DNA from: Nitrospirota bacterium
Lineage (GTDB): Bacteria > Nitrospirota > UBA9217
NCBI GenBank assembly: GCA_041476485.1
Contig: JBGOTO010000001.1
Coordinates: 770 to 64,769 of the forward strand
DNA: 64,000 nt
Direction of reading: 5' to 3'
Shown: positions 3,238 through 58,844 of the stretch, in pieces
How positions within the stretch are numbered: the stretch's first letter is position 1
How the letters are laid out: the number at the start of each line of letters is the position of its first letter
Made by a program: the position numbers and the translations under genes
Notes under the pieces: model-generated
Told to the model about the DNA's origin: nothing
The model's input: the letters and a program-made list of their open reading frames with translations, nothing else
Database searches by the model: none

Positions 3238-3238
3238 G

Positions 3239-11066: not shown

Positions 11067-11246
11067 TCAATGCCCGAATTCTACAGCATTTTGATTCAAC
11101 GGCCGGGGACGCCCTTGTCGTGCTGAACAAATAAACTTGGTATTGACCAGCCAATTATGTGAAAATTCCCTCGACTGGGGAAGCCAGGCGTGTGATAATT
11201 TCTCCACAGCATAGGCTTATTGTCATAAACAGGATATAATAGTGAT

Positions 11247-11393
11247 TACTCAGGTCAGCTACTTCGCTTTGCGCAAGGCGCGCCGGATAATTAAGGGAAT
11301 TTCGAAGTCGACCACAAGCCCCACCTTGCTTGATGTCCGTGCATCGGTCGCCGCGCGCTTCATTGCGCCTTTGCTCCGCAGCAGACCTGAGTA
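11247..11393. repeat. MITE-like ~147-bp intergenic repeat, copy 1 (TIR tactcaggtc / gacctgagta)
   Basis: About 95% identical to the copies at 23499..23645, 24915..25062 and 46431..46577. 10-bp perfect terminal inverted repeats; internal imperfect palindrome gcgcaaggcgcgcc ... ggcgcgcttcattgcgcc. Confidence 0.85.
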
Positions 11394-11431
11394 GTTACCT
11401 ATAATAAAATTAAAAAAAAATGGAGGGTCAC

Positions 11432-22813: not shown

Positions 22814-22898
22814 AATTTCGGATTTCGGATTGTAGATTTCGGATTTTTTTTATTCCGCACTCCGCATTCCGCACTCCGCATTGCTGTAATCCGGAGGA

Positions 22899-23489: not shown

Positions 23490-23498
23490 AAATGTAAC

Positions 23499-23645
23499 TA
23501 CTCAGGTCAGTTGCTTCGCTTTGCGCAAGGCGCGCCGGATAATTAAGGGAATTTCGAAGTCGATCACAAGCCCCGCCTTGCTTGATGTCCGTGCATCGGT
23601 CGCCGCGCGCTTCATTGCGCCCGCGCTCCGCAGCAGACCTGAGTA
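23499..23645. repeat. MITE-like ~147-bp repeat, copy 2 (between rnfA and rnfB)
   Basis: Begins 10 nt after the rnfA stop; same TIRs and core as copy 1. Confidence 0.85.
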
Positions 23646-23729
23646 GTTATGTAAAAATGATAAATTCAAAGTGAAAAATTTACAATAAAGTGGTAGTATA
23701 CTTCTGCTTTAATTTTTTTGTGAAGGTGC

Positions 23730-24902: not shown

Positions 24903-24914
24903 TTAGCCGCGAAT

Positions 24915-25062
24915 TACTCAGGTCAGCTACCTCGCTTTGCGCAAGGCGCGCCGGATCATTAAGGGAATTTCTAAGTCGACCCACAAGCCCCGCCTTGCTT
25001 GATGTCGGTGCATCGGTCGCCGCGCGCTTTATTGCGCCTGCGCTCCGCAGCAGACCTGAGTA
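24915..25062. repeat. MITE-like ~147-bp repeat, copy 3 (after rnfB)
   Basis: Begins 12 nt after the rnfB stop; same orientation as the other copies. Confidence 0.85.
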
Positions 25063-25345
25063 GTTACAAGAATTTTTAAAAAGCACGGAGGGGATGTAAA
25101 AAAGCATTCCCTTTTTTATTTCTCCGGCCTGTGCCCCGTCCCCCCGCGGGTCATTCCCCTTGACAATGCCGTATCCCTATGTAAGAATAAAATGGTTCTC
25201 CGCAACGGCGAGGAACATCTTCCGCGCATGCACGGGCGCCGCGAATTTTTTTGGGGAAGCTCCCGCTCTTTTTGCTTGACAAAAATATGCGCTTAGGCTA
25301 AAAACAGAACCATTCTCGATTTGTTCACGCTTCCGGAGGTATCAT

Positions 25346-29613: not shown

Positions 29614-30915
29614 TTGGACGATCAGCTAACGAAATACACACAAAAGCTCCTCCGCGACCGGACCGCGGTTGCGGAAAGCCTCCGCTTCTACCGGCTCGAC
29701 GACGTTTTGACGTCAAACAAACGGGACGAATGGCTTCCGCTCTTCACCGAGGTTTTCAACGGGCTGGACATCACCGCGATACTCTTTGCAAAACCGACGC
29801 TGCCTTTCGCTGACCTGCTTGTGGAACGGACCGATACGAACATTGATCGGCTTGTTCCGAAGGACAGCGAGACCAAAGGGTTCCTGCACGATATCCCCTT
29901 CATACGGGAGTGTGAATGGGCCGGGAGGCCGAAGCACGAGCTCGCAGGCATGATCGTCCGGTGTCTGAAAGAGCGGAAGGCGGCGATTATCCAGGGACTC
30001 GGCATGGTCGCGACGGGCGGCGTGACGGTGGAACAGGCGTACATCGGCTTTTCCACCCTGTTCCACACGACCTTCGTCAAATATCTTCTCGACCTGCTGG
30101 TAGAGGGGTTCAGGCTGCCGGGAGAAAAAGATGCTTTTGCGGCGTTTCGTAAGGATTGGTTGAAGACGCCGGACTTAGGCAGCCTTACCTTCACTCCGGG
30201 ACCGCTTGAAGGCAATGCGGAGTGCGGAATGCGCCCTGCACTCGCGCGAGCACTCGTAAACGCTGGGTGCAGGCGGAATGCGGAATGCGTGAATCGTAGT
30301 CAGGGAACAGACGCAATCTATCGTGAAGTCTGCAGGGTCGGACGCTATACCGTCGAGAAGGGATACGTAGACTCCTTTTTCGGGAACATCAGTTATTTCG
30401 ACGGAAAGACCATCTACATCAGCCAGACTACTTCATCGCTCGACGAGCTTGAAGGCCATATCGACCCTGTACCGCTCGACGGCTCATCCACTGCCGGGCT
30501 TTCGGCCTCATCGGAATTGCCTGCTCACCGGGGGATATACCTGTCTTCGGACTATCATGCCGTCCTTCACGGTCACCCCAAGTTCAGCGTGGTCATGTCC
30601 ATGTACTGCGTGGAGGAAGGCTGCACGATTCCCGACTGCAACCGGTTTTGCGATCGCAAACGTTCCGTGTGCGGCGTGCCGGTCGTGGCCGGAGAGACGG
30701 GCGCCGGCGGGCTGGCAACATCCGTTCCTCTTGCCATCAACAAGACCGGCGTCTGCATCGCCTACGGGCACGGTATTTTTTCTGCAGGGAAGAAAGATTT
30801 TCGGGATGCGTTCATGAACATGGCGGAGGCGGAAGACAAGTGCAGAGACGGGTATTTTGAACTGCTGGAAGGCAGGAAGGTAGAAGGTCACGAAGTTAAG
30901 AAGTTAGGAGAGTAA
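29614..30915 (+). CDS. two-domain protein whose C-terminal half is class II aldolase/adducin-like; the heptamer repeat is embedded in-frame mid-ORF
   Basis: TTG start. The C-terminal half has GNISYFDG, HAVLHGHP and AYGHGIFSAG (class II aldolase Zn/His motifs). Residues encoded by 30214..30292 (NAECGMRPALARALVNAGCRRNAECVNRS) come from the GCGGAAT repeat element that is intergenic at five other loci. Confidence 0.6.
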   Translation: MDDQLTKYTQKLLRDRTAVAESLRFYRLDDVLTSNKRDEWLPLFTEVFNGLDITAILFAKPTLPFADLLVERTDTNIDRLVPKDSETKGFLHDIPFIRECEWAGRPKHELAGMIVRCLKERKAAIIQGLGMVATGGVTVEQAYIGFSTLFHTTFVKYLLDLLVEGFRLPGEKDAFAAFRKDWLKTPDLGSLTFTPGPLEGNAECGMRPALARALVNAGCRRNAECVNRSQGTDAIYREVCRVGRYTVEKGYVDSFFGNISYFDGKTIYISQTTSSLDELEGHIDPVPLDGSSTAGLSASSELPAHRGIYLSSDYHAVLHGHPKFSVVMSMYCVEEGCTIPDCNRFCDRKRSVCGVPVVAGETGAGGLATSVPLAINKTGVCIAYGHGIFSAGKKDFRDAFMNMAEAEDKCRDGYFELLEGRKVEGHEVKKLGE

Positions 30916-30963
30916 GAAGGTAGGAAACACGTTCTTACCCTTTTCCGGTCTTCGCTCCGCCTT

Positions 30964-39927: not shown

Positions 39928-40449
39928 ATGGGGAATAGAATCTATTTCATCACCGGCGGGGCACGTTCGGGAAAGTCCGCTTTTGCCGAGAAGCTTGCGG
40001 GCGAGCTCCAGGGTAAACGGGCCTACCTTGCAACGGCGCAGGCCCTCGATGCGGAGATGGTCGCACGCATCGAATTGCACCGGAAAAGGCGCGGAGGCGC
40101 ATGGGACACTTACGAGGAACCGCTGGCCATCGCCGAGCTGATGCGGAAACTCTCCGGCCGGTATGAAGTCCTGCTTCTTGACTGTCTTACTCTTTGGCTC
40201 AGCAACGTCATGGCCAGGACCGAGAAGAGCGACGAAATAGCCGGAAAACTCGACGAACTGACCACGGCGCTGAAGGATTTCAATGGGTCGTCTCTTGTGG
40301 TCACGAACGAAGTGGGGCTCGGCATCGTCCCGGACAATCCGCTTGCACGCCGTTTTAGGGATTTAGCCGGCATGATGAACCAGAAAGTGGCGCGAGTAGC
40401 GGATGAAGTGTATTTTACGGCTTCGGGGATACCGATGAGGATAAAATAG
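39928..40449 (+). CDS. cobU: adenosylcobinamide kinase / adenosylcobinamide-phosphate guanylyltransferase
   Basis: IYFITGGARSGKS P-loop, ~175 aa; the neighbours are cobT/cobS/cobC. Confidence 0.85.
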   Translation: MGNRIYFITGGARSGKSAFAEKLAGELQGKRAYLATAQALDAEMVARIELHRKRRGGAWDTYEEPLAIAELMRKLSGRYEVLLLDCLTLWLSNVMARTEKSDEIAGKLDELTTALKDFNGSSLVVTNEVGLGIVPDNPLARRFRDLAGMMNQKVARVADEVYFTASGIPMRIK

Positions 40450-40478
40450 GGTCAGGGGGCAGGGGTCAAGGGGCATGG
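40449..40478. repeat. G-rich left inverted repeat flanking the four-helix-bundle gene
   Basis: GGGTCAGGGGGCAGGGGTCAAGGGGCATGG abuts the start codon. Its reverse-complement partner lies at 40838..40863 (GTGGGTCAGGGGGCATGGGTCAAGGG when reverse-complemented). Confidence 0.7.
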
Positions 40479-40837
40479 AAAAAGATGAAAGGGGTTTCAG
40501 ACAGCTGAATGCCTGGCAAAAGGCCTATGAACTGACCTTGGAAATTTATCAGCTTGCCAAAGCATTTCCAAAGAGCGAAGCATACGGGCTAACCTCACAA
40601 CTGCAGCGTGCCGTTGTGTTCGTACCGGCCAATATTGCAGAAGGTTACGAGCGTAACCACAGAAAGGAATACGTTCAATTTCTGTTCATTGCTAAAGGAT
40701 CGTTAGGTGAGGTTGAAACATACCTTCTGCTTGCAAAAGATTTTGGATACTTATCACAAGACGAATATGCAAGTATAGACGAAAAAAGGAAAACAACATC
40801 AAGGCTCTTAAAGGGTCTTATCAAGTCGTTAACTTGA
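40475..40837 (+). CDS. four-helix-bundle protein (23S rRNA intervening-sequence protein family)
   Basis: 120 aa; AWQKAYELTLEIYQL...LTSQLQRAVVFVPANIAEGYER...KGSLGEVETYLLLAKDFGY is the signature of this family. It is inserted between cobU and cobT. Confidence 0.8.
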   Translation: MEKDERGFRQLNAWQKAYELTLEIYQLAKAFPKSEAYGLTSQLQRAVVFVPANIAEGYERNHRKEYVQFLFIAKGSLGEVETYLLLAKDFGYLSQDEYASIDEKRKTTSRLLKGLIKSLT

Positions 40838-40863
40838 CCCTTGACCCATGCCCCCTGACCCAC
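40838..40863. repeat. G-rich right inverted repeat (C-rich on + strand) flanking the four-helix-bundle gene
   Basis: CCCTTGACCCATGCCCCCTGACCCAC begins 1 nt after the stop codon. Confidence 0.7.
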
Positions 40864-40873: not shown

Positions 40874-41968
40874 TTGCAGAAAAAGGAGAAAACAGTGAAC
40901 AAACTCAAGGAAATTCTCGATACTATTCAGCCCGTCGACCAGTCTCGCTCGAACACGGTCCAGGCGCAGCTTGACAACCTAACGAAGCCGCAGGGGAGCC
41001 TCGGCCGCCTGGAGGAGCTTGCGAAAAAATATTGCCTGATCACGGGCAAGGACAAGCCGACGATCAGGAACAAGATCATTTTTACCTTTGCCGGCGACCA
41101 CGGCGTCACGGAAGAGGGCGTGAGCGCATTTCCCAGGGAGGTGACGCCGCAGATGGTGTTCAATTTCCTGCGCGGCGGCGCGGGAGTGAACGTGCTCGCG
41201 AAGCACACGGGCGCCAGGGTGATCGTGGTGGACATGGGCGTTGATTACGAATTCGAGCCAACGGACGGGCTCGAGATCAGAAAAATAGCCCGCGGCACGA
41301 AGAACATGACCAAGGGTCCGGCCATGACCCGCGAAGAAGCGGAGCGCGCGGTTCTCGCCGGGATCGAACTGGTGGAAAAATATAAGAACGGGCTCGACCT
41401 CCTCGGGACCGGGGACATGGGTATCGGGAACACGACGCCGTCCTCGGCGATCGTATCAGTCATCACGGGAACGGACCCGGAAAAAGTGACTGGACGAGGC
41501 ACCGGCATCGACGAGCAGTCATTAAAGAACAAGGTGGCGATCATTAAAAAAGCGATTGCGGTGAACAAGCCTGATCCCAAGGATGCCCTCGACGTGCTTG
41601 CCAAGGTGGGCGGGTATGAGATCGCCGGGATCGCCGGACTCGTGCTCGGGGCGGCGCTCTACAGGATTCCTGTGGTGATCGATGGGTTCATCTCGACCGC
41701 GGGCGCGCTCATCGCTGCGGAATTGAATCCCCTGTGCAAGGGCTACATGATCGCAGCGCACCAGTCGGTCGAGATCGGCCACCGGAAGATGCTCGAACAT
41801 ATGGAGCAGATACCGCTCCTGGACCTCAATCTCCGGCTGGGAGAGGGCACGGGCGCGGCGCTCGGCATGTCGCTCGTCGAGGCGGGCGTGAAGATCCTCG
41901 GCGAGATGGCGACGTTTGCAGCCGCGGGAGTCGCGGAAGGCAACGAGGCTGAGAAAGTGAGAAATTAA
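40874..41968 (+). CDS. cobT: nicotinate-nucleotide--dimethylbenzimidazole phosphoribosyltransferase
   Basis: CobT signature GDMGIGNTT...GLVLGAAL...[10 protein letters not shown]. Confidence 0.9.
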
Positions 41969-42049
41969 GAAGGTGGAAAGGTAGGAGGGCAAGAAGGTAG
42001 GAAAATGGGAAGGTAAGAAGGTAGGCAAAGAGAGGAAAAGACGGCAGGC

Positions 42050-43479: not shown

Positions 43480-43683
43480 ATGAAGTCAGTAATGGACATA
43501 GCAAAAGAGGAAGAGCGGAAAGAGTTCCTCAAGCGTTCCCCGCTTGAGAGGATGGAAGTCATGCACGATTTTCTGTTCCAGGTCATCGCCCTAAAAGCGC
43601 GAGGGGAAAGAGTCCCTGAATATGAGATCTATACGAGATACCTTAGAGACAATCCGAGACATTACGAACGCTCTTCCCGTTAA
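43480..43683 (+). CDS. small ORF overlapping (different frame) the downstream NTase gene; possible frameshifted N-terminus
   Basis: 67 aa; overlaps 43622..43683 of the next ORF in another frame. Confidence 0.3.
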   Translation: MKSVMDIAKEEERKEFLKRSPLERMEVMHDFLFQVIALKARGERVPEYEIYTRYLRDNPRHYERSSR

Positions 43684-44230
43684 AGTCACTATCGTTCTTA
43701 CCGGCGGATATGCCGTAATCGCGCACGGCGTCGAACGAACGACCCTTGACCTTGATTTTTGCGTCTACTCCGACCTTATCGAAACCGCCGACACTGCCGC
43801 ATTTTTCGATGTTCTGAAAAAAAATCTCCCCAAAAGATATGAAGCAGAACTGAGGCAAGGCAGCAAAATCCCCGATGATCCTTTCAAGCATGACCTCATC
43901 CGTATTATTGACAATCAAAAAGAGTTTTTGAGAATCGACTTGCTGATAGCCCGCTATAAATGGGAGCTGGAGGGCATGGAGCTGGCCGTGCATCTTAAAG
44001 ACATTCCCTTGCCCGTCCTGAGCAAGCCGTACCTCGTTGCCATGAAGCTGCAAGCCACGGCGTACAAGGACTACCAGGATGTCGTGACCCTGTTTGACCT
44101 CATGACCGAAGAAGAAAAAGCAAAGACGCGGGAGCTTGCAAAGCGGACCCACAGGGACAAAAAGCTTGACCGGATTCTTTCCCCGCCGCCCGAAGAAGAA
44201 GTGCGGGAAATGCCGGAGGAGTATTTATAG
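43622..44230 (+). CDS. Pol-beta-superfamily nucleotidyltransferase (AbiEii/MNT-like)
   Basis: TGGYAVIAHGVERTTLDLDF is a G-G-x13-D-x-D NTase motif, followed by a helical C-terminal region. Confidence 0.55.
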   Translation: MRSIRDTLETIRDITNALPVKVTIVLTGGYAVIAHGVERTTLDLDFCVYSDLIETADTAAFFDVLKKNLPKRYEAELRQGSKIPDDPFKHDLIRIIDNQKEFLRIDLLIARYKWELEGMELAVHLKDIPLPVLSKPYLVAMKLQATAYKDYQDVVTLFDLMTEEEKAKTRELAKRTHRDKKLDRILSPPPEEEVREMPEEYL

Positions 44231-45997: not shown

Positions 45998-46429
45998 ATG
46001 CCGTACCGGTTCCTCGAAGATGTCGCTATCGCCGATGTCGCCTTCGAAGCCGAAGGGCGGGTCCTTCCGGAATTGTTCAAGGAGGCGGGCCTTGCGGTGA
46101 CGAACACGATGGTGCAGGACCTTTCGCAGATCGAGCACAAGATCGCAAAGAGGATCAAGGGCGCGGCGGAGAATATCGAGATGCTGCTGTTTCATTTTTT
46201 GCAGGACCTGATTTTCTACAAGGACGCGGACCTGCTTCTCTTTAGCGATTTTCATCTCACGATCGTCCAGCGGGAAGGCGAGTGGCGCCTCCATGGAACG
46301 GCCTATGGCGAAGAGATATCCCCTGACCGGCATGAACTTCTTGTCGACGTAAAGGCGGTGTCTCTCCATAATTATAAAGTCCGGAAAACGGCAAAGGGAT
46401 GGCAGGCGGAAGTCATCCTTGATGTGTGA
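45998..46429 (+). CDS. archease (RtcB activator)
   Basis: 143 aa, 1-nt gap after rtcB; matches the archease family pattern. Confidence 0.75.
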   Translation: MPYRFLEDVAIADVAFEAEGRVLPELFKEAGLAVTNTMVQDLSQIEHKIAKRIKGAAENIEMLLFHFLQDLIFYKDADLLLFSDFHLTIVQREGEWRLHGTAYGEEISPDRHELLVDVKAVSLHNYKVRKTAKGWQAEVILDV

Positions 46430-46430
46430 T

Positions 46431-46577
46431 TACTCAGGTCAGCTACTTCGCTTTGCGCAAGGCGCGCCGGAGAATTAAGGGAATTTCGAAGTTGACCACA
46501 AGCCCCACCTTGCTTGATGTCCGTGTATCGCTCGCCGCGCGCTTCATTGCGCCTGCGCTCCGCAGCAGACCTGAGTA
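46431..46577. repeat. MITE-like ~147-bp repeat, copy 4 (after archease)
   Basis: Starts 2 nt after the archease stop; same TIRs as the other copies. Confidence 0.85.
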
Positions 46578-46659
46578 GTTACCTTGATGTTTAAATCCGC
46601 GCGCGACTTCTCTGCATTGACAGGCAACCGGTGCTCTTATCTCACGCCCGATAAAATAA

Positions 46660-46688: not shown

Positions 46689-46695
46689 ATAGGCA

Positions 46696-46800
46696 CATAA
46701 AGCTGGGGGAGCCTATGGCTGAGAGTCCTGTTCACGAGGGACGACCCTTGGAACCTGATCCGGGTAGTGCCGGCGTAGGGAAGGCGAGTATGTACCAGGA
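46696..46800 (+). promoter_or_regulatory. TPP (THI-box) riboswitch
   Basis: CTGGGGGAGCC...GCTGAGAG...ACCCTTGGAACCTGATCCGGGTAGTGCCGGCGTAGGGAAG matches the THI-element core (CUGAGA, ACCUGAUCYGGNUAAUACCNGCGNAGGGA). Confidence 0.85.
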
Positions 46801-46810
46801 TAACCTTTCG

Positions 46811-46838
46811 AGCCACGCCTCCGGCGTGGCTTTTTGTG
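46811..46838 (+). terminator. riboswitch expression-platform terminator
   Basis: GCCACGCC-TCC-GGCGTGGC hairpin followed by TTTTTGTGTT, 20 nt before the thiS start. Confidence 0.6.
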
Positions 46839-46858: not shown

Positions 46859-47089
46859 ATGATGATCACACTGAACGGAGAAAAAAAACAGATCGAAGAT
46901 GGTATGAGCGTACAGGGCCTGCTGGAATTACTGAAAATTCAGCAGCAGCGCGTGGCTGTTGAGTTAAATCTTGAGATAGTGAAGAAGGACAAGTACGGTA
47001 TGACTGCCCTCAAGGAAGGCGACAGCCTGGAAGTGGTGAGCTTTATGTCCGGAGGATGTGCATGGAGCGAGCCGACCGTGTCGGCGTAA
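46859..47089 (+). CDS. thiS: thiamine-biosynthesis sulfur carrier ThiS with a 10-aa extension after the Gly-Gly end
   Basis: MMITLNGEKK...EVVSFMSGG is a ThiS/MoaD fold ending in GG, but the frame continues CAWSEPTVSA* into the repeat element at 47062..47118. The track ORF start at 46715 reads through the riboswitch. Confidence 0.7.
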   Translation: MMITLNGEKKQIEDGMSVQGLLELLKIQQQRVAVELNLEIVKKDKYGMTALKEGDSLEVVSFMSGGCAWSEPTVSA

Positions 47090-47118
47090 ATTAACGGCAA
47101 CACGGTTGCCTTGGTCCA
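47062..47118 (+). repeat. 60-nt double-hairpin element, copy 1 (upstream of thiG)
   Basis: atggagcgaGCCGACcgtGTCGGCgtaaattaacGGCAACacgGTTGCCttggtcca: two perfect 6-bp stems with 3-nt loops plus the palindromic TGGTCCA. Near-identical copy at 55087..55146. Confidence 0.7.
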
Positions 47119-47131
47119 GAAGGAGCAGAGT

Positions 47132-47911
47132 ATGGCTGACGACAAGCTGGTAATTGCCGGAATTGAATTCAACTCCCGGCTCTGGGTGGGCACGGGAAAG
47201 TACAAGGACTTCGCGGAGACGAAGCGGGCCATCGAAGCATCGGGTACGGACGTGGTCACCGTGGCCGTGCGGCGCGTGAATATCACGGACAAGAGCAAGG
47301 AGAACTTGCTCGACTATATCGATCCGAAAAAATATAAGATTTTGCCGAACACGGCGGGATGCTACACGGCAAAGGACGCAATACGCACCGCCATGCTCGC
47401 TGCTGAGGCGGGCATTACCAAACTGGTAAAGCTCGAAGTGCTCGGAGACGAGAAGACCCTGTTCCCGGACAACGAGGCAACGCTCGAAGCAGCGAAGGTC
47501 CTCGTGAAGGAAGGCCTCATTGTATTGCCTTATATGAGCGACGACCCGATTATGGCCAAAAAACTCGTGGACATCGGCTGTCCCGCGGTTATGCCGCTTG
47601 CCGCGCCCATCGGCTCCGGCCTCGGCATCAGGAACCCTTACAACATCAGGATCATCATGGAGACCGTGAAAGTCCCCGTTGTCGTGGACGCCGGAGTGGG
47701 CACGGCCTCGGACGTGGCGCTCGCGATGGAGCTCGGTTGCGATGCTGTCCTGCTGAACACGGCGATTGCCGGAGCGAAGGACCCCATTGCCATGGCCGAG
47801 GCCATGAAGTATGGCGTGCTTGCGGGACGACTTGCTTACAAAGCAGGAAGAATTCCGAAGAAACTCTATGCCACGGCCAGCAGCCCGCTGGAGGGAATGA
47901 TTGGGAGTTGA
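47132..47911 (+). CDS. thiG: thiazole synthase
   Basis: [24 protein letters not shown] ... conserved Lys, TIM-barrel ThiG family. Confidence 0.9.
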
Positions 47912-48539
47912 TTTTCGGTTCTATTTGATCACCGACCGGAAGCAGACGAAGGTGCCGGTTGCTGTTGCGGTCAGGCAAGCGCTTGAAGGCGGAGTTCGAT
48001 CTGTTCAGCTTCGTGAAAAAGATTTGCCGATCAGGGAGCTTCTTGCCCTGGCTTTTGAGCTTCGAAAGATTACCAGAGATTTCAACGCCAGGCTGTTCAT
48101 CAACGACCGCGTGGATGTCGCGGTGGCTGTTGACGCCGACGGCGTACACCTCGGTCACGAGAGCATGCCGGTGTCCGCCGTGCGTAAGATCGTAGGCAGG
48201 GATATGATGATCGGCGTGTCGACCCACAACGTGTACGAAGCGCGGGACGCAGAGGCAGGCGGCGCGGATTTCATTACTTTCGGGCCGATATTTTCTGTGC
48301 CGTCGAAAATTAAGCACGGCGCGCCGGTCGGGGTCGAGGCCATCAGGACGGTCAAGAAGCATGTTCGGATTCCTGTTTTCGCTCTCGGCGGTATAAAAAC
48401 TGATACGGTAATGCAGGTCCTGCAGGGCGGGGCCGACGGCATCGCGATGATATCGGCGGTCCTCGCGGCCCCTGATATAAAACAAGCGGCAGCGGATGTT
48501 GTCAGTAAAATCCGCGGTCAATACGAGGTGCAGCCATGA
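47901..48539 (+). CDS. thiE: thiamine-phosphate synthase
   Basis: FYLITD ... QLREK ... DGVHLGQ-like (ADGVHLGHE) ... ThiE motifs; TTG start with GGAGGGA RBS. Confidence 0.85.
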
Positions 48540-49837
48540 CCCAGATCCTTGAAGCGCGAAAAGGAAATATTACTCCCGAGATGGAAGCGGTTGCGCGTTC
48601 CGAAAGCACGAGCGTCGAGCATGTTATCGCAGGTGTGGCTTCGGGCACGATCGTGATCACGCGCAACAGCCGGCATATGTCCATCACGCCGCTCGGCATC
48701 GGCAAGGGACTCAGGACCAAGATCAACGCCAACATCGGGACCTCGAAGGACCGGATGTCCATCGACGATGAGATCGAAAAGCTCAAGGCTGCTGTGTCGG
48801 CCGGCGCGGACGCGGTCATGGACCTCTCGACCGGCGGCCCGATTGTCGGGATACGCAGGGAAATCCTGAAGCATTCCACGGTTGCCATCGGGACGGTGCC
48901 GATTTATCAGGCAGCGGTCGAGACGGTGGAACAGGGGAAATCAATCGTCCAGATGGACCCCGATCTGCTGTTCCGCGTGATCGAGCAGCAGGCGGAAGAG
49001 GGCGTGGACTTCGTGACCGTGCACTGCGGCGTGACCATCGCGAGCGTGGAGCGGCTGAAGAAGCAGGGCAGGATCATGGACGTGGTGAGCCGGGGCGGGG
49101 CGTTCCACCTCGAATGGATAATCTGTAACGAGGCTGAGAACCCGCTCTACGCGCAGTACGACCGCCTGATCGAGATCTGCAAGAAATTCGATGTGACGCT
49201 CTCGCTCGGCGACGGCATGCGGCCGGGGTGCCTCGCCGATGCCACGGACCGGGCCCAGATCGAGGAGTTGATCATTCTGGGCGAGCTGCGCGACGTGGCG
49301 CACGAGGCCGGCGTGCAGGTGATGATCGAGGGGCCGGGCCACGTGCCGATCAACCAGGTCGAGATGAATATCAAAATTCAAAAGGAGCTGTGTAAAGGCG
49401 CTCCGTTCTACGTGCTCGGACCGCTCGTGACCGACGTTGCGCCGGGATACGATCACATCACTTCGGCCATCGGCGGCGCGATAGCGGGCGCGGCAGGGGC
49501 GGACTTTCTCTGCTATGTCACCCCGTCGGAACATTTGCGCCTGCCGGACCTTGAAGACGTGCGCGAGGGTGTCATCGCCTCCCGCATCGCGGCGCATGCC
49601 GCGGACATCGCGAAGGGCGTCCCGGGCGCCATGGACTGGGACAAGGAAATGGCGCGGCGGCGCAAGGCGCTGGACTGGAAGGGCCAGATCGAGCTTTCGA
49701 TCAATCCCGAACGGGCGCGCAAGCTGCGCGAGTCGAGCATGCCCAAGGAATCCGACGTATGCTCCATGTGCGGGGAGTTCTGCTCGATGAAAGGCGTGAG
49801 CCAATACCTGAAGAAAGAAGACAGGAGCGGGAAATAA
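48536..49837 (+). CDS. thiC: phosphomethylpyrimidine synthase (short, anaerobe-type)
   Basis: 433 aa; C-terminal CSMCGEFCSM radical-SAM-like Fe-S motif; overlaps the thiE stop. Confidence 0.9.
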   Translation: MTQILEARKGNITPEMEAVARSESTSVEHVIAGVASGTIVITRNSRHMSITPLGIGKGLRTKINANIGTSKDRMSIDDEIEKLKAAVSAGADAVMDLSTGGPIVGIRREILKHSTVAIGTVPIYQAAVETVEQGKSIVQMDPDLLFRVIEQQAEEGVDFVTVHCGVTIASVERLKKQGRIMDVVSRGGAFHLEWIICNEAENPLYAQYDRLIEICKKFDVTLSLGDGMRPGCLADATDRAQIEELIILGELRDVAHEAGVQVMIEGPGHVPINQVEMNIKIQKELCKGAPFYVLGPLVTDVAPGYDHITSAIGGAIAGAAGADFLCYVTPSEHLRLPDLEDVREGVIASRIAAHAADIAKGVPGAMDWDKEMARRRKALDWKGQIELSINPERARKLRESSMPKESDVCSMCGEFCSMKGVSQYLKKEDRSGK

Positions 49838-50712
49838 TGCGGAATGTGGAATGCGGAGTGCGGAATAAGTTAAGAAACCTCTATTTGTTCAGTATTCTTT
49901 TCTGCTTGCCTTTTCTTGCTTATGCGGGAGAGACGGCTGTTCAGCCGGAGGTAATCCTCTCCCCGAACAAGGTGGGGCCGGGGGACATCCTGCTCATCAC
50001 CGTAAATAATTCCGGCGGGCCGGTTGAAGGAATATTTGACGGCAAAAAACTCTATTTTAATCCAATAAAAAATTATTATGAAGCCGTTGTCGGCATCGAC
50101 CTGTTGACTAAGCCCGGAACGTATGATCTGGAAATCAATTGCAATAACGTCCCAATTCACCGCGTTGTCCGGGTCTCGAAAAAAGCCTATCCGCTCCAGC
50201 GGCTTACGCTTCCGAAGGACATGGTTGAACTCTCTCCCGAGAACGAGGCGCGCGTCGAGCGCGAGCAGAAGAAGACTGCCACTCTCTGGCCGAACGAGAC
50301 CAGCCGGACCTGGTCGGGCAATTTCATCAATCCGCGGGAAGGCAAGATCTCCTCGCTCTTCGGGGTCAGAAGGATCATCAACAATATTCCGAAGAGTCCT
50401 CACAGCGGCGTCGATGTTTCCGCCGACGAGGGAGATGAAGTGATCGCCCCGAACAACGGCGTTGCCGCGTTGGTAGACGACCAGTTCTATTCAGGGAATA
50501 TCGTCGTGCTCGACCACGGCCAGGGCATTTATACCATGTTCTTTCACCTGTCCAAAATAGTCGTCACGCCGGGCCAGATCGTCAAGAAGGGCGACGTAAT
50601 CGGCCTCGTGGGCTCCACGGGCCGCGCAAAAGGCGCGCACCTGCACTGGGGCGTGCGTATGCAGGGCGCTCGCGTCGATCCGCTGGAACTGATTCACTTG
50701 AAGCTGGAGTAA
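49837..50712 (+). CDS. secreted M23-family metallopeptidase
   Basis: HSGVDVSA (HxxxD), HLHWGV (HxH), signal peptide LYLFSILFCLPFLAYA. ATG 49837 overlaps the thiC stop (TAATG). The first 14 codons (MRNVECGVRNKLRN) are encoded by the heptamer repeat. Confidence 0.75.
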   Translation: MRNVECGVRNKLRNLYLFSILFCLPFLAYAGETAVQPEVILSPNKVGPGDILLITVNNSGGPVEGIFDGKKLYFNPIKNYYEAVVGIDLLTKPGTYDLEINCNNVPIHRVVRVSKKAYPLQRLTLPKDMVELSPENEARVEREQKKTATLWPNETSRTWSGNFINPREGKISSLFGVRRIINNIPKSPHSGVDVSADEGDEVIAPNNGVAALVDDQFYSGNIVVLDHGQGIYTMFFHLSKIVVTPGQIVKKGDVIGLVGSTGRAKGAHLHWGVRMQGARVDPLELIHLKLE

Positions 50713-50776
50713 AACGGCAGGGTCAAGGGGCAAGCAGCAAGGGTATGGGTCCAGGGGCAAGGGGCAGGGGTCAGGC

Positions 50777-51598
50777 GTGAGACGAAAGAGATATTTTCAT
50801 TCCGCAATCCGCATTCCGCAATCCGCAATTGGAGTAAAAGTCCTATCCATCGCCGGTTCCGACCCTTCTTCCGGCGCCGGGATCCAGGCCGATCTCAAGA
50901 CCTTCCAGGCGCTCGGCGTATTCGGCATGGCTATACCCGCTGCGCTTACAACGCAGAACAGCAAGGGCGTTTCCGGCGTGTATCCTGTTCCGCCAAAAAC
51001 CCTGTCACAACAGATTGACACGCTTCTTTCGGACATCAAGCCTGACGGGATCAAGACCGGCATGCTGCTCACGAAGCAAGCCGTGGATGCCGTGGCAAAG
51101 GCTGTCCGAAAGTATAAGGTCAGAAACCTCGTCATCGATCCCGTGATCCGGTCCAGTTCCGGCAGGCCGCTTCTCCGGCCCGATGCGCTGAGATCACTCA
51201 AACAAAATCTTTTGCCGCTGGCGCTTGTCGTCACTCCTAACATACCCGAAGCGGAAATGCTGACCGGCATGTCGATCAAGTCAGACGGAGACATGGATTT
51301 TGCCGCCGGTCATATCCTCGATCTGGGACCAACCTATGTGCTCATCAAGGGCGGTCATTGGAAAGGCCCTGCAACAGATACACTCTACGGAGGCAAAACC
51401 GTGGTCAGCCTTTCCACAACCAGGAAGAAAGGCGAGTTTCACGGCACGGGGTGCGTGCTTTCCTCCGCAATCGCGGTGTTCATAGCCCAGGGATTTCCTG
51501 TGGAAAAGGCTGTGGAAAAGGCAAAACAGTTTGTGGATAGGATGTTGAAAACAGCGATGCGAATGGGGAAGGGCAAGACGAAGTACTTTCAATTCTAA
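50777..51598 (+). CDS. thiD: hydroxymethylpyrimidine/phosphomethylpyrimidine kinase
   Basis: VLSIAGSDPSSGAGIQADLKTFQALGVFG canonical ThiD N-terminus. The start is uncertain: GTG 50777 reads through heptamer repeat 50798..50830 as HSAIRIPQSAI. Confidence 0.8.
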   Translation: MRRKRYFHSAIRIPQSAIGVKVLSIAGSDPSSGAGIQADLKTFQALGVFGMAIPAALTTQNSKGVSGVYPVPPKTLSQQIDTLLSDIKPDGIKTGMLLTKQAVDAVAKAVRKYKVRNLVIDPVIRSSSGRPLLRPDALRSLKQNLLPLALVVTPNIPEAEMLTGMSIKSDGDMDFAAGHILDLGPTYVLIKGGHWKGPATDTLYGGKTVVSLSTTRKKGEFHGTGCVLSSAIAVFIAQGFPVEKAVEKAKQFVDRMLKTAMRMGKGKTKYFQF

Positions 51599-51674
51599 CC
51601 GTTTTTTTACCCAGAGATCGCTGAGAAAATGAAGTTGATTCGCTCTGCATCCTGGTTCAGTCACTTGGGAGGTT

Positions 51675-52385
51675 ATGATGCGCGTTGACGGCAGAAGGGC
51701 GGACGAGCTCCGCAAAATCAAGATCACCAGAAACTACATCAAGTCCGCCGAGGGGTCCGTGCTGATCGAGATGGGTGACACGAGGGTCATTTGTACGGCC
51801 ACGGTGGAAAATTCCGTGCCGCCGTTCCTCAGGGGCAAAGGCACGGGCTGGGTGACGGCCGAGTACGCCATGCTTCCGCGCTCTTCCGCGCAGAGGATCC
51901 AGCGGGAGCGAAACAAGGTGGGCGGCCGCACGCATGAGATCCAGCGGCTCATCGGCAGGTCGCTCCGCGCCGTTATGGACATGGCCGCGCTCGGCGAACG
52001 GTCCGTGCTGATCGACTGTGATGTGATCGAGGCTGACGGCGGCACCCGGACGGCATCGATAACCGGAGCGTACATCGCGCTCGTGGCCGCGCTGCAGCAG
52101 GTGCAGAAAAAGGGTATGATCGACACCGTGCCGGTGAAGGACCATCTTGCCGCGGTGAGCGTGGGGATCGTGGACGGGAAACCGATGCTCGATCTCTGCT
52201 ATGTTGAAGATTCGACGGCGGAAACGGACATGAACCTGGTGATGACCGGCTCGGGTAAGATCGTCGAGGTGCAGGGCACGGCAGAGGGCGCGCCGTTCTC
52301 CAAAGCCGAACTCGGTAAACTTCTCGCCCTGGGCGAGAAGGGGATCAGTGCCCTGATAAAAAAACAAAAAGAAGCGCTCAAATGA
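51675..52385 (+). CDS. rph: ribonuclease PH
   Basis: [21 protein letters not shown] ... [19 protein letters not shown]. Confidence 0.9.
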
Positions 52386-52942
52386 CCGCCTTCCTGACGT
52401 CGCTGGCCATCGTGTTTCTTGCCGAGATGGGCGACAAGACCCAGCTTCTGGCCATGGCCTTTGCCGTCCGGTTCCGATGGCAGACCGTCCTCTGGGGAGT
52501 TTTCGCAGCCACCGCTGCGAACCATCTCTTTGCCGTATACGTCGGGAATTATCTCACGAACATTATTCCTCTTGCTTCTATAAAAATTGCCGCATCCGCG
52601 TCCTTCATACTCTTCGGCCTCTGGACCCTGCGCGGCGATGAACTGCATGATGAGGACAAGAGGTTCAAATTCAGTCCTTTTTGGACCATTGCCATTGCCT
52701 TTTTTCTGGCGGAGATGGGAGACAAGACGCAGCTTGCCACCGTGGCGCTTGCGGCCGATTTCAATACCATTGTCCCGGTATGGTTCGGGACGACGGCAGG
52801 GATGCTTGTTGCCGATGCCCTGGGGATCATCGCGGGCATCGTGTTGCACAAAAAGATTCCTGAAAAACAGATCAAGTGGTTTGCCGCAGCGGTCTTCATC
52901 GCGTTCGGCCTGTGGGGACTGTACGGGGAGTTTTTTCGTTGA
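52382..52942 (+). CDS. UPF0016 (GDT1/TMEM165/MneA) family cation transporter
   Basis: Two E-x-G-D-K-T motifs ([10 protein letters not shown] twice), 6 TM. Confidence 0.8.
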
Positions 52943-53011
52943 CGATCTCCCGTTATCCGTGATACAACTATTCTGATTCATCGACTGTTCAACTCGAGGA
53001 GGTGTACGGTT

Positions 53012-54244
53012 ATGAAGAGAATTTTCATCGTTTTTCTGCTGGCGCTCTGCATTGTTCTCCCGATCGGCGCTTTTGCCGCAGACGGGGACCTGACCAGGAA
53101 CGTGAAGCGCCTGGAACGGGTTTCACCCGACTATGAGGCGGACAAGGACATTGATAGGAAATTCATCGAGGTCCTCAACCTGACCGAGAAGTTAAAACAG
53201 CCCTTCGAGATATACGTCGAGGCCAAGCGTATCGCCGGGAACGCCGCGTTGGCGGAGAGCAAGTACATGGATTCGTTCCTTTACTATATGCTCGTAAAGT
53301 CGCTCTCGCAAGCCAAGACCGGCACCGCGGAAATCGATTACTGGCTCGGCCTGCTGAAGGCCAACAACGACAAGAGCCCCCATCTCCTCGCCGCTCAGCT
53401 CATCAGACTTCATCAGCTTCCCAAGGACTCTCCGGACATCCGCCGCGATGCGGAACTCGCCGTTGACTGGGTCAAGGCGCTAAAGCCCGGCCAGAAACTC
53501 CGTGCGCCTGAATATTCGGGGAACATGATCACCGGATACTTGCTGCGCGTCAATTTCGCGGAAGGCGACTATCTCAAGGTCTACACGGCCGCGACCTACA
53601 AGGCCTCGGCCGCGCCGCTTGCGGGGTTCAGGGAGGACGAAACGTACGTGTCGCTCCTTGACCGTATCAAGCCAGGGCGCGAGGACGTCATGAACGAAAT
53701 GCTGGCCATTTACCGAAAAGCGTATAAAAAGAAAGAGGCTGCCGACATCCTATATCAGCTCGCCGAGCTCAAGATCTCGGCCAGGGATTTGACAACGGCC
53801 AAGACGCTTCTGGACGACGCCGTAAAGCTGAACCCTGAACACGCGGCCGCCAAAAAAGAACGGAACCGGGTCAAGCTCGAGCTCACGTACCGGTCCCTTG
53901 CCCCCGTACCGTCCGTACAGCCGGTAACTCCCGCGGTGACTCCGTCGAAACAAGAGGAAGCGCCCATCCCTGCGCACCTCAATGATGTTCAGGGATATCT
54001 GACGCCGATCGACCGGGTGGTCACGGAAGCGGAGCTCCACGGCAAGAGCAAGGCGGAACTCAGGGTCATGAGGAACGAAATTTATGCGCGCCATGGACGG
54101 ACGTTCGAAGCTCCCGACCTCCAGAAGTATTTCTCCGGGAGACCGTGGTACCGGCAGAACCCCTCATATTCCGACAGCCTCTTGACCGAAACGGACAAGG
54201 CGAATGTGAAGGCCATTCAGGATTTTGAAAACGGGATGCAGTAG
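53012..54244 (+). CDS. secreted protein with C-terminal YARHG domain
   Basis: Signal peptide MKRIFIVFLLALCIVLPIGAFA; C-terminal RNEIYARHGRTFEAPDLQKYF. Confidence 0.6.
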   Translation: MKRIFIVFLLALCIVLPIGAFAADGDLTRNVKRLERVSPDYEADKDIDRKFIEVLNLTEKLKQPFEIYVEAKRIAGNAALAESKYMDSFLYYMLVKSLSQAKTGTAEIDYWLGLLKANNDKSPHLLAAQLIRLHQLPKDSPDIRRDAELAVDWVKALKPGQKLRAPEYSGNMITGYLLRVNFAEGDYLKVYTAATYKASAAPLAGFREDETYVSLLDRIKPGREDVMNEMLAIYRKAYKKKEAADILYQLAELKISARDLTTAKTLLDDAVKLNPEHAAAKKERNRVKLELTYRSLAPVPSVQPVTPAVTPSKQEEAPIPAHLNDVQGYLTPIDRVVTEAELHGKSKAELRVMRNEIYARHGRTFEAPDLQKYFSGRPWYRQNPSYSDSLLTETDKANVKAIQDFENGMQ

Positions 54245-54261
54245 TTTATTGACACTCCCGT

Positions 54262-55122
54262 TTGCGCTGTGTTATTATCGCTCAGATGATGATTGAGCAA
54301 AAATGGGACCGCTTGAGGGCGCTGCTTCGGGAGATGAAATCAGCGGTGCTCGCCTATTCAGGCGGTGTTGACAGTTCATTGCTCCTGAAAGCGGCATCCG
54401 AGGTCCTGGGCCCCAACGTCGTGGCCGTCACCGCGGTATCAGAGACCTATACGGCCGCCGAACTTGCCGGCGCGAAGGAGTTTGCCGGCTCTCTCGGCGT
54501 GGCGCTCCGGATACTCCATACGGCGGAGCTTGAGTCAGAGGAGTTTGCCCGGAATTCGCCGGAGCGGTGCTACTTCTGCAAGAAAGAACTATTCGGAAAG
54601 CTCACGCAGCTCGCCGAGGCCGAGGGCATTGCCTTTGTCCTTGACGGGTCCAACACCGACGATCTCAAGGATTACCGACCCGGTTCGAAGGCCGCCCGCG
54701 AGCTTTCCGTCAGAAGCCCGCTCAGGGAAGCGGGGTTTTCCAAGTCCGACGTCCGGGCCTGCGCGCGCATGCTGGGCCTTTCCGTATGGGACAAACCGTC
54801 GGCCGCCTGCCTGTCCTCACGCATTCCCTATGGCACGAGGATCTCTCCCGGGATACTTCATAGGATACAGTCCGCGGAAGACCATCTGCGCGCGCTCGGG
54901 TTCTCGCAGGTGCGCGTGCGGCATCATGGCGAAATCGCGCGGATCGAGATCGACCGCGAAGACTTCGGGCGAATGGTTGCCGACGGTGTCGTTCAGAAGA
55001 TCACCGTCGCGCTCAAGGAAGCCGGCTACACGTATGTCTGCATGGACCTCGAAGGCTACCGCACGGGAAGCATGAATGAGATTTTTATGGAGCGAGCCGA
55101 CCGTGTCGGCGTAAAAAAATAA
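54262..55122 (+). CDS. larE: PP-loop ATP pyrophosphatase, LarE-like (TIGR00268 family)
   Basis: SGGVDSS PP-loop, conserved Cys (AACLSSRIP), ~270 aa. The last 11 codons (MERADRVGVKK) lie in the double-hairpin repeat copy 2. Confidence 0.65.
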   Translation: MRCVIIAQMMIEQKWDRLRALLREMKSAVLAYSGGVDSSLLLKAASEVLGPNVVAVTAVSETYTAAELAGAKEFAGSLGVALRILHTAELESEEFARNSPERCYFCKKELFGKLTQLAEAEGIAFVLDGSNTDDLKDYRPGSKAARELSVRSPLREAGFSKSDVRACARMLGLSVWDKPSAACLSSRIPYGTRISPGILHRIQSAEDHLRALGFSQVRVRHHGEIARIEIDREDFGRMVADGVVQKITVALKEAGYTYVCMDLEGYRTGSMNEIFMERADRVGVKK

Positions 55123-55146
55123 CGGCAACACGGTTGCCTTGGTCCA
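55087..55146 (+). repeat. 60-nt double-hairpin element, copy 2 (upstream of purD)
   Basis: atggagcgaGCCGACcgtGTCGGCgtaaaaaaataacGGCAACacgGTTGCCttggtcca; ends 13 nt before the purD ATG. Confidence 0.7.
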
Positions 55147-55159
55147 AAAGGGGTCACAA

Positions 55160-56437
55160 ATGAAAGTTCTTATCGTCGGCGGTGGGGGCAGGGAACATGC
55201 ACTCGCCTGGAAAATATCGCAGAGCTCGAAAGTCACGAAGATCTACGCGGCGCCGGGAAACGCGGGGATAGCGCAGATTGCTGAATGCGCGCCGATTAAA
55301 GCCGAAGATATCGCCGGGCTCTTATCATTTGCAAAATCCAAGGCCGTCGACCTCACCATCGTGGGGCCCGAAGGTCCGCTTTCGATGGGCATCGTGGACG
55401 AGTTCACGAAAGCGGGGCTTCGCGCCTTCGGGCCGAGCGGAAAGGCCGCCGAGATCGAGGCGAGCAAACGGTTCTCCAAGGACCTCATGAAGAAGTATCG
55501 TATCCCGTCCGCTGATTACGGCGTGTTCACCGACAGGGCGGCAGCCGAAGCCTACATCCGTGAAAAAGGAGCGCCGATCGTCGTTAAGGCCGACGGGCTT
55601 GCCGCGGGCAAGGGCGTGGTGGTCGCCGAGACCCTGGACGAGGCGATCAAGGCGCTTGACATGATCATGACCCAAAAGGCCTTCGGCAAAGCGGGCGAGC
55701 TCGTGGTGGTCGAGGAGTGCCTGAAGGGAGAAGAAGCGTCTTTCATGGCGTTCACCGATGGCAAGACCGTGGTCCCCATGGCATCATCTCAGGACCACAA
55801 ACGGATATTCGACGGCGATAAGGGCCCGAACACCGGCGGCATGGGGGCCTATTCTCCGGCGCCGGTCGTAACGAAAAAGCTGGAACGCCAGGTCATGGAG
55901 AAGATCATGGTCCCCACGGTGCGGGCCATGGAGAAGGAAGGGCGCTTGTTCAAGGGCGTGCTGTATGCGGGGATCATGGTCCAGAACGGCGAGGCCAGGG
56001 TGCTCGAATTCAACGCGCGGTTCGGGGACCCCGAGACGCAGCCGATCATGATGAGGCTGGACACCGACCTTATCGATATCATCGAGGCAATTATCGACGG
56101 GAACCTGTCGAAGATACATGTCAAATGGAAAGCAGGATCGGCGGTATGCGTGGTCATGGCATCGGGCGGGTATCCCGAAAAGTACGAGAAGGGCAAGGAG
56201 ATCAAAGGCCTCGACCATGCGTCGAAGCACGGCGACGTGATGGTCTTTCACGCCGGGACGTCGCTGAAAAACGGCGCGGTCGTGACCGACGGGGGCAGGG
56301 TGCTCGGCGTCACGGGCCTGGGCCCCGTGGTTGCCGCGGCCATCGACAACGCCTACGCGGGCGTACGCGAGATCTCTTTTGACGGCGCGCATTATCGCAG
56401 AGACATCGGCGCCCGGGCCCTCGAGAAGGGGAGCTGA
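55160..56437 (+). CDS. purD: phosphoribosylamine--glycine ligase
   Basis: MKVLIVGGGGREHALAWK ... ATP-grasp motifs. Confidence 0.9.
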   Translation: MKVLIVGGGGREHALAWKISQSSKVTKIYAAPGNAGIAQIAECAPIKAEDIAGLLSFAKSKAVDLTIVGPEGPLSMGIVDEFTKAGLRAFGPSGKAAEIEASKRFSKDLMKKYRIPSADYGVFTDRAAAEAYIREKGAPIVVKADGLAAGKGVVVAETLDEAIKALDMIMTQKAFGKAGELVVVEECLKGEEASFMAFTDGKTVVPMASSQDHKRIFDGDKGPNTGGMGAYSPAPVVTKKLERQVMEKIMVPTVRAMEKEGRLFKGVLYAGIMVQNGEARVLEFNARFGDPETQPIMMRLDTDLIDIIEAIIDGNLSKIHVKWKAGSAVCVVMASGGYPEKYEKGKEIKGLDHASKHGDVMVFHAGTSLKNGAVVTDGGRVLGVTGLGPVVAAAIDNAYAGVREISFDGAHYRRDIGARALEKGS

Positions 56438-58766: not shown

Positions 58767-58844
58767 GAAAAAATGTGGAATGACGAATGCGGAATGTGGA
58801 ATGAAAAATCATGAAAGCACCGCGTCTCGAACTCCGAAAATGAC

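Follow-up and report, generated by a model that had tools for sequence, protein, structure and literature searches.

Introduction

Repetitive extragenic palindromic (REP) sequences, together with their paired forms, bacterial interspersed mosaic elements (BIMEs) and REP doublets forming hairpins (REPINs), are defined by the pairing of a lineage of REP-associated tyrosine transposases (RAYTs) with its own REP type and by the nesting of the RAYT gene among those REPs in a 'REPtron' (PMC6006769). The canonical REP foot carries a conserved 5' GT[AG]G tetranucleotide; canonical REPs of this kind accompany only some RAYT subclasses, and subclasses 2.1 and 2.3 are without REP-like sequences (PMC6006769). 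Here, we describe two near-identical inverted-repeat elements, one between thiS and thiG and one between a larE-like gene and purD, in a 64,000-nt stretch of DNA (the window) from a Nitrospirota bacterium (GenBank assembly GCA_041476485.1, contig JBGOTO010000001.1, positions 770 to 64,769 of the forward strand). An initial annotation of the window had offered three options for this element: a REP-like mRNA stabilizer, a translational-coupling device or a protein binding site. We find that the REP-like option is the right one: with a probability of roughly 0.87, each element is a REP doublet, the equivalent of a BIME or REPIN, of a RAYT-associated family. Because the family is linked to a RAYT, we regard the element as an ordinary bacterial repeat and not as a thiamine/purine switch, which removes the false lead of a control device shared by the two pathways.

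As in the REP/BIME sequences of E. coli and their transposase TnpAREP, there are two unit types (Y and Z in E. coli), inverted pairs with short linkers, occasional tandem arrays, extragenic and within-operon sites, and a Y1 HUH transposase gene flanked by units (PMC6006769). Unlike in E. coli, the foot is T-W-TGGAG and not GT[AG]G, each stem has just 6 bp and a triloop, every doublet is heterotypic (an A unit followed by an inverted B unit), the sense bias is very strong, and the hosts are metagenome-assembled genomes (MAGs) labeled Nitrospirota and Desulfobacterales, not Proteobacteria. The REPINs of Pseudomonas and their vertically inherited RAYTs resemble the present case in the repeated doublet, the flanked RAYT gene and the long persistence at orthologous sites of diverged genomes (PMC3116915; bioRxiv 10.1101/2021.07.10.451892). 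Classical REPINs pair two near-identical REPs and conserve the long hairpin, whereas the two arms here differ systematically, in their stems and at one foot position. The family also documents REP-RAYT systems beyond the Proteobacteria, where they have mainly been studied. With its non-GTAG foot, obligately heterotypic doublet and very strong sense and stop-proximal placement, it offers a clean system in which to ask whether RAYT recognition, selection on operon transcription or a combination of the two shapes the doublets.

Two copies of an inverted 25-nt unit in the window

An exact-match search of the window returned two matches to either half of the motif, no more, and these on the + strand only (47062-47090/47092-47118 and 55087-55115/55120-55146), and no match arose in 100 shuffles of the window. 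When aligned, the two copies are the same from ATGGAGCGA to TTGGTCCA, except in the central loop (AAATTA in copy 1, AAAAAAATA in copy 2), and their flanks are unrelated save for an AAGGRG Shine-Dalgarno sequence. From the end of copy 1 (47118) to the thiG ATG (47132), and likewise from the end of copy 2 (55146) to the purD ATG (55160), the gap is 13 nt. The stop codons of thiS and larE both lie inside the elements. Exact matches, shuffles and alignment therefore bear out the initial annotation in describing two near-identical elements that lie 13 nt before start codons and overlap the 3' ends of the preceding open reading frames (ORFs). Feature coordinates are collected in Table 1.

The left half of the element and the right half, once reverse-complemented, are variants of a single 25-nt unit: the foot TGGASCRA (8 nt), a 6-bp stem closed by a 3-nt loop, and a final GT. 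The A unit reads TGGAGCRA-GCCGAC-CRY-GTCGGC-GT and the B unit, which is inverted, TGGACCRA-GGCAAC-CRY-GTTGCC-GT. A relaxed scan of the window for units with up to 4 mismatches returned the four known units only, with no further copy or half-copy. We set the element boundaries from the 113 doublets described below, which have T at position -2 in 107 cases and A at +2 in 105; copy 1 carries C at -2, where the family mostly has T.

Table 1. Features of the thiS-thiG and larE-purD regions, in window coordinates
Feature	Coordinates	Strand	Basis or remark
TPP (thiamine pyrophosphate) riboswitch aptamer (46695-46799) with terminator-like hairpin and T-run (46810-46832)	46695..46832	+	Rfam RF00059, 65.4 bits; terminator scan
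thiS	46859..47089	+	PF02597 residues 3-66 (profile 1-76/76); TIGR01683 residues 3-66 (profile 1-64/64)
Probable REP doublet copy 1, thiS-thiG spacer	47061..47120	+	exact matches; includes flanking positions -2/-1 and +1/+2
A-type unit, copy 1, TGGAGCGA-GCCGAC-CGT-GTCGGC-GT	47063..47087	+	unit scan, 0 mismatches
A-rich variable loop, copy 1, AAATTA	47088..47093	+	preceding T plus loop gives the thiS stop TAA, 47087-47089
B-type unit, copy 1, inverted, TGGACCAA-GGCAAC-CGT-GTTGCC-GT (minus strand)	47094..47118	-	unit scan, 0 mismatches
thiG, with its own Shine-Dalgarno sequence AAGGAG at 47120-47125	47132..47911	+	PF05690, 374 bits
larE-like PP-loop ATPase	54262..55122	+	TIGR00268, 325.8 bits, residues 14-272 of 286
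Probable REP doublet copy 2, larE-purD spacer	55086..55148	+	exact matches, alignment
A-type unit, copy 2	55088..55112	+	unit scan
Loop, copy 2, AAAAAAATA	55113..55121	+	holds part of the larE stop TAA, 55120-55122
B-type unit, copy 2, inverted	55122..55146	-	unit scan
purD	55160..56437	+	GARS_N/A/C domains; TIGR00877, 575 bits

The family in other genomes

We scanned a collection with one genome per species for a pattern that demanded just the two small hairpins, and recovered 109 loci. The full element, with nearly invariant feet, is present at 105 of these, in 25 assemblies; the other four (L004, Chloroflexota; L049, Actinomycetes; L057, Oscillospiraceae; L079, Streptomyces) lack the feet and were rejected as chance matches. 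The short palindrome thus occurs many times per genome, with up to ~27 family loci in a single MAG, and is mostly extragenic. Host assemblies are mostly Nitrospirota MAGs, the others being labeled Deltaproteobacteria, Thermodesulfobacteriota or Desulfobacterales. Some of the 'Deltaproteobacteria' MAGs have stretches of five genes in synteny with Nitrospirota loci, the proteins being 40-70% identical, and the spread of the element across phyla may partly be a matter of labeling. One locus (L047) lies on a 1.3-kb contig binned as Anaerolineales, has flanks closely like those of Desulfobacterales copies, and is probably mis-binned. A full-text literature search with four core 15-mers found no paper.

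Among 113 doublets of the family, the units are paired in inverted orientation around a short spacer and their order is always A unit, loop, inverted B unit, at times with extra tandem B units; one array holds four doublets with a period of 85 nt. The conserved block extends from the T-W ahead of TGGA through the N-A behind TCCA. The loop ranges from 1 to 39 nt across the family, with a mode of 5 nt, and is 46% A. Denser, mixed clusters of units occur in Desulfobacteraceae Eth-SRB1 and in Guaymas 'Deltaproteobacteria' MAGs (L061, 100-330 and 7760-7960; L097, 3780-3930). Several of these units share one orientation, and compensated variant stems are found in some; Nitrospirota have simple doublets.

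A RAYT gene flanked by the same units

At one locus (L067), an A unit and a B unit 605 nt apart enclose an ORF of 181 residues (2766-3311) with the motifs HYH and Y-x-x-NPVKHG. The product matches the NCBIfam equivalog NF047646, 'REP-associated tyrosine transposase', with 91.7 bits (cutoff 80), and the Pfam family Y1_Tnp; among PDB entries, only E. coli TnpAREP (4ER8) is related to it. Upstream of this RAYT gene lie a B and an A unit in the same orientation, ending 8 nt ahead of the ATG, and downstream lies a full doublet of an A unit and an inverted B unit. Homologues with 63-65% identity are present at two Nitrospirota loci (L065 and L107), both inside clusters of A and B units. The gene came to light through units ~600 nt apart; clustering of neighboring ORFs across the 109 loci, as a search for a recurrent neighbor gene, yielded generic families only (kinases, ABC ATPases, RND pumps and tyrosine recombinases).

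We also scanned metagenomes with a RAYT alignment and obtained 44 loci. A or B units lie no more than 200 nt from each of the 18 metagenome RAYTs that have at least 61% identity, and 14 of these are flanked on both sides. Where RAYTs are 40-55% identical, the flanking doublets keep the TGGAG...CTCCA feet and have other stems (ACTTGC, ATCAGC, GTCAAC, ATTGAC). These comparisons suggest a wider superfamily in which the foot would be fixed and the 6-bp stems would co-vary with the transposase. By analogy with E. coli TnpAREP, the RAYT would recognize, in single-stranded DNA, both the small hairpins and the TGGAG...CTCCA feet, and would cleave and rejoin the DNA there, thereby spreading and maintaining the doublets.

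Several individual loci deserve mention. The same feet with changed 6-bp stems occur in L135 (840-890 and 1470-1540) and in the flanks of RAYT genes in L136, L133, L138 and L140 (RAYTs of 40-47% identity). The L107 RAYT gene (6037-6575; MAG MFD03899.bin.2.182) has an in-frame TAG near codon 42 and is either a pseudogene or affected by a sequencing error. A decayed RAYT remnant lies between an A unit and an inverted B unit just upstream of thiS in L008 (5868-6132).

The conserved fold

The minimum-free-energy fold of the sense RNA is one long imperfect hairpin, of -32.7 kcal/mol for copy 1 and -34.3 kcal/mol for copy 2, with z-scores of -3.6 and -5.3. The double hairpin drawn by the initial annotation therefore does not hold as an RNA fold, but variation across the family favors two 6-bp hairpins over the long one. 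When the stem sequence was left free in the scan, all 6 stem pairs were formed in 229 of 245 units, and in a scan for at least 5 pairs 9 of 13 non-canonical stems were fully compensated (GGCATC/GATGCC, GGGAAC/GTTCCC and GCAAAC/GTTTGC among them); metagenome copies also show the stem GTCGAC/GTCGAC. The triloops vary freely, the variable positions being transitions there and at two foot positions. We observed no covariation between the arms at five variable position pairs, and the pair L6/R-7 has an excess of A/C mismatches (20, against 12.6 expected). Based on the compensated stems and the absence of cross-arm covariation, we conclude that the small hairpins are the conserved structures; the long hairpin appears from these comparisons to be a by-product of inverted duplication that is not maintained in its own right.

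Placement and persistence

The initial annotation had raised the question of whether copies always precede start codons. By our approximate counts they do so very often and in one orientation: an ORF that starts in the same direction after a Shine-Dalgarno-like motif, within 60 nt downstream, follows 39 doublets in sense and 3 in antisense orientation. A co-oriented ORF ends near the doublet on its upstream side in 64 sense and 27 antisense cases; the upstream stop codon begins 5-8 nt ahead of TGGA at 32 doublets, and at 10 it falls within the loop. Relative to the element, the flanking genes are both on the plus strand (+/+) in 48 cases and both on the minus strand (-/-) in 4. Copies are retained almost exclusively in short spacers between co-directional genes, with the doublet in sense orientation and ahead of the next ribosome-binding site, typically 2-5 nt past the stop codon and ~10-25 nt before the next start. 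Copies in random orientations and positions had been expected of a generic REP; the many copies do mark it as such, but orientation and position are not random. Liang and colleagues reportedly dealt in 2015 with REPs near stop codons.

At least 5 T residues in the 8 nt after the hairpin are found in 36 of 113 doublets on the antisense strand versus 4 of 113 on the sense strand. A terminator scan called both window copies terminator-like on the minus strand only, and a terminator role on the sense strand was rejected because the scan found none there. The mean fold energy is -27.9 kcal/mol in sense versus -25.7 kcal/mol in antisense, and the sense fold is the more stable in 71 of 105 cases. In an antisense copy, the A-rich loop is read as its complement, a U-run behind the B hairpin, and this combination would terminate transcription, so antisense copies within operons would be polar and lost. 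The sense doublet would be just a stable intercistronic RNA hairpin that leaves the operon unbroken; its possible effects are slower termination of the upstream cistron or protection of that cistron's 3' end. The orientation bias likely reflects selection, through avoidance of terminators, and a further contribution might come from a single-strand transposase that inserts in a strand-specific way.

The thiS-thiG spacer is filled by a doublet in the window and in three Nitrospirota MAGs (loci L019, L008 and L027), whose ThiE proteins are 60-69% identical to that of the window. In the four-way alignment of thiS-thiG, the units are invariant but for the triloops, and nearby third codon positions vary. 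The site upstream of a ligT-like gene is likewise filled in four genomes, with flanking proteins 32-50% identical. Such persistence can be explained by the need to remain recognizable to the RAYT, and long persistence has similarly been reported for REPIN-RAYT systems (bioRxiv 10.1101/2021.07.10.451892). For the insertion target, comparison of filled with 'empty' orthologous sites gave no clean contrast, the 'empty' sites being occupied by other repeats.

Alternative explanations

Several points weigh against the identification as REP doublets. No RAYT gene is present in the 64-kb window, and a cognate HUH-Y1 RAYT gene flanked by the same units is found in relatives only; the window's own genome lies outside the scanned genome collection. 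The canonical 5' GT[AG]G foot is missing, with GTGG in just 6 of 113 doublets. The long 'REPIN' hairpin gains no independent support from covariation. Both stems were fixed in the primary genome-scan pattern, which in part accounts for their conservation in that set. Finally, the placement statistics rest on crude ORF heuristics.

The explanation that survives best beside REP identity is that the doublet has been exapted by its host as an intercistronic RNA module and is now kept by selection, its hairpin tuning the relative expression of neighboring cistrons, for example by protecting 3' ends, by being processed by RNase III or by slowing termination. Such a role does not conflict with REP identity but adds a claim of host function, which we consider unlikely. 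Folding predicts a stable RNA hairpin, with an average of -28 kcal/mol; the sense bias is extreme and the spacing to stop and start codons tight, and the units are invariant at orthologous sites while nearby codons and proteins diverge. Constancy of sequence is, however, equally explained by RAYT recognition, and the bias by counter-selection of terminator-like antisense copies. Moreover, the sense RNA is just slightly more stable than the antisense, the long RNA hairpin has no covariation support, and the same spacers in other relatives are filled by unrelated heptamer repeats.

It is highly improbable that the element is a miniature inverted-repeat transposable element (MITE) derived from a DDE-type insertion sequence (Correia or IS630 type), with TWTGGAG...CTCCAWA terminal repeats and a TA target duplication. 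This would fit the 10-nt inverted termini and the A/T-rich flanks (T-A or T-T before, A-A or T-A after), and another, unrelated MITE-like family with 22-nt terminal repeats is present in the window. However, the flanks are not direct duplications, the -1/+1 pairs being mostly A/A; no DDE transposase recurs near the copies, and the gene consistently flanked by units is a Y1 RAYT.

Thiazole and purine synthesis share the intermediate AIR (aminoimidazole ribotide), and the only two copies in 64 kb lie 13 nt upstream of biosynthetic genes of these linked pathways. A dedicated cis-regulatory element that coordinates thiG and purD through a shared protein or ligand is nevertheless less probable still. 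The element precedes dozens of unrelated genes, lies within pth and an RND pump gene, and occurs in 25 assemblies; its loop, the sole part that is not repeat, is variable; and the thi operon is already under a TPP riboswitch with a terminator. Rfam gave no match at the gathering score and, in a search to E=10, only microRNA noise at E of 5 or more. With more than 100 copies preceding unrelated genes, the proposal of a device specific to thiG and purD falls, and we conclude that the doublets in the window are not specific regulators of either gene.

An integron attC site, which a ~60-nt imperfect palindrome just past ORF ends and integron-integrase-like tyrosine recombinase ORFs at a few loci (L007, L022, L013, L068) might suggest, is rejected on sequence and context, since the outer ends fail RYYYAAC/GTTRRRY, the AAC/GTT triplets lie 3 nt apart within one small hairpin, and the copies sit among housekeeping genes (thiS, thiG), not in cassette arrays. 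The tyrosine recombinase ORFs lie within a few kb of doublets (L007 655-2056, integron-integrase-like; L022 287-1742; L013 2146-3031; L068 5352-6243), and their nearness is probably coincidental.

Repeat-derived segments in ThiS, LarE and other proteins

In the window, the thiS frame reads ...SFMSGG-CAWSEPTVSA-TAA, with the stop codon in the loop of copy 1. The ThiS domain ends with the Gly-Gly at codon 66 (nt 47056), where both profiles stop although the product has 76 residues; codons 67-76 come from the 6 nt before the A unit and from the A unit itself. The larE ORF ends ...EIFMERADRVGVKK-TAA, its last 11 codons lying in the A unit and loop in a frame unlike that of thiS. The initial annotation had noted this, and the TIGR00268 match stops at residue 272 of 286. 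Copy 1 thus follows a thiS without a stop codon of its own, supplying the stop and a junk tail of 10 residues, and copy 2 does likewise for larE.

We next compared ThiS termini among relatives. In the window and L019, thiS reads Gly-Gly followed by xxWSEPTVSA to the stop in the loop. In L027, a TGA follows directly after GGG, and the doublet lies 6 nt further on. In L008 (6182-7231; MAG MFD03899.bin.2.182), thiS stays in frame through the whole doublet into thiG, predicting a fusion of 350 residues that may be an assembly indel. Among the 120 closest ThiS clusters, 12 end at Gly-Gly, 28 have one extra residue and 80 have 2-50 unrelated residues; only two of the tails are derived from the doublet. 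Many of the others are translations of repeats with a heptamer period, which occupy this spacer in other relatives (..ECGVRN.., CAQARLEIAN). In a rough regular-expression count, at least 56 of 148 ThiS representatives (50% clustering, possibly biased by the choice of representatives) have 3 or more residues past the terminal glycines. The extension CAWSEPTVSA is therefore real at the DNA level, as the initial annotation had it, but is not specific to the element, 108 of the 120 closest clusters being tailed; orthologs that end at Gly-Gly do exist, and are the minority. Since thiS in this lineage usually has no stop codon after Gly-Gly, the doublet has not given rise to anything exceptional here. 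Across the sequences inspected (P0001-P0120 and P0121-P0268), the tails are 1 to ~70 residues long and unconserved, and Cys, whose codon TGY is a single step from TGA, is the first residue of many; in P0154, ThiS and ThiG are fused in frame.

The ThiS core is well conserved, Gly-Gly included, and the free carboxylate of this Gly-Gly is needed for adenylation by ThiF. Given that requirement, we infer that tailed ThiS would be trimmed by proteolysis. In the carriers QbsE (with QbsD) and CysO (with Mec+), a JAMM peptidase exposes or regenerates the Gly-Gly terminus. These are alike in being ThiS/MoaD-fold carriers encoded with residues past Gly-Gly; here, by contrast, the tail is repeat-derived junk that varies between relatives, and the surroundings of the thi operon in the window yielded no JAMM gene. 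A regular-expression search detected no H-x-H...S-x-x-D (JAMM) motif in any real ORF of the window, and there was no JAB family among the 36 window ORFs scanned against Pfam, ~25 smaller or distal ORFs lying outside that scan; the JAMM/MPN peptidase suggested near the thi genes thus did not appear in the part searched. An M23 peptidase encoded in the thi operon is unlikely to be the trimmer, as it has a signal-peptide-like N-terminus and looks exported. A literature search on ThiS tails returned nothing specific.

We tentatively propose, at somewhat less than even odds, that in this Nitrospirota lineage, and apparently in many further uncultured bacteria, ThiS is routinely a pro-protein whose arbitrary C-terminal tail (REP doublet, heptamer repeats or in-frame thiG) would be cut back to Gly-Gly by a peptidase before ThiF acts. 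Ubiquitin-like C-terminal maturation would then be a normal step of bacterial thiamine synthesis, and the doublet one of many tolerated tails. That thiS usually lacks a stop codon after Gly-Gly in this lineage makes sulfur-carrier maturation a testable question.

Rickettsia palindromic elements are a known case in which copies are tolerated inside reading frames. The present family is similar in its 18-codon in-frame insertions and in the ThiS and LarE tails, but most copies are intergenic. One doublet lies in frame inside pth, where it adds 18 residues (L002, 4332-4934; ...MERADRVGVKTATRLPISK...), and another adds 18 residues (EQADRVGVETATRLPRSK) in frame inside an RND pump and is kept in both MAGs that carry it (L036, 1218-4425; L048, 1-1927). 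For annotation, the practical consequence is that in these genomes repeats supply ORF ends as well as some internal segments. In-frame REP insertions within genes have been mentioned before (PMC6006769).

Neighboring genes and other repeats

The actual thiamine-responsive control of the thi operon is the TPP riboswitch with its terminator (Table 1). The M23 (LytM-type) peptidase gene (49759-50712) lies inside the operon between thiC and thiD, in the same place as in L019, and the 5' end of its long ORF runs through a heptamer repeat. ThiS, ThiG and ThiC of the window are closest to those of Nitrospirota MAGs, and the GC content of the window is 57.6%. Elsewhere, the window encodes a WD40-repeat protein of 964 residues with a C-terminal caspase (Peptidase_C14) domain (11420-14314) and, upstream of rtcB-archease, an AbiEii-type nucleotidyltransferase toxin (43622-44230).

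A second, unrelated repeat family is present in four copies (11235-11404, 23487-23656, 24904-25073 and 46419-46588). Its members are ~155-170 nt long, with 22-nt terminal inverted repeats (TAACTACTCAGGTC.GCTGC ... GCAGCAGACCTGAGTAGTTA) and 85% mean column identity, features that give the family the appearance of a MITE. One of the four copies is found in the interval that separates the archease gene from the thi promoter/riboswitch.

Tandem repeats with a period of ~7 nt occupy many intergenic spacers of the window (22850-22884, 30212-30233, 30860-30927, 40449-40475, 40835-40861, 41945-42028, 49836-49877 and 58772-58820). The motif varies among spacers: AATGCGG/AATGTGG/AGTGCGG, GAAGGTA-like, GGGGTCA/GGGGCAG or AAATTGC. 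We take these repeats to resemble the heptamers of cyanobacterial short tandemly repeated repetitive (STRR) sequences. Heptamer repeats are also found in relatives (L110, 3200-3260; L112, 3200-3250; and L081, in a spacer unrelated to thiS), where they occupy spacers that carry the REP doublet in other genomes.

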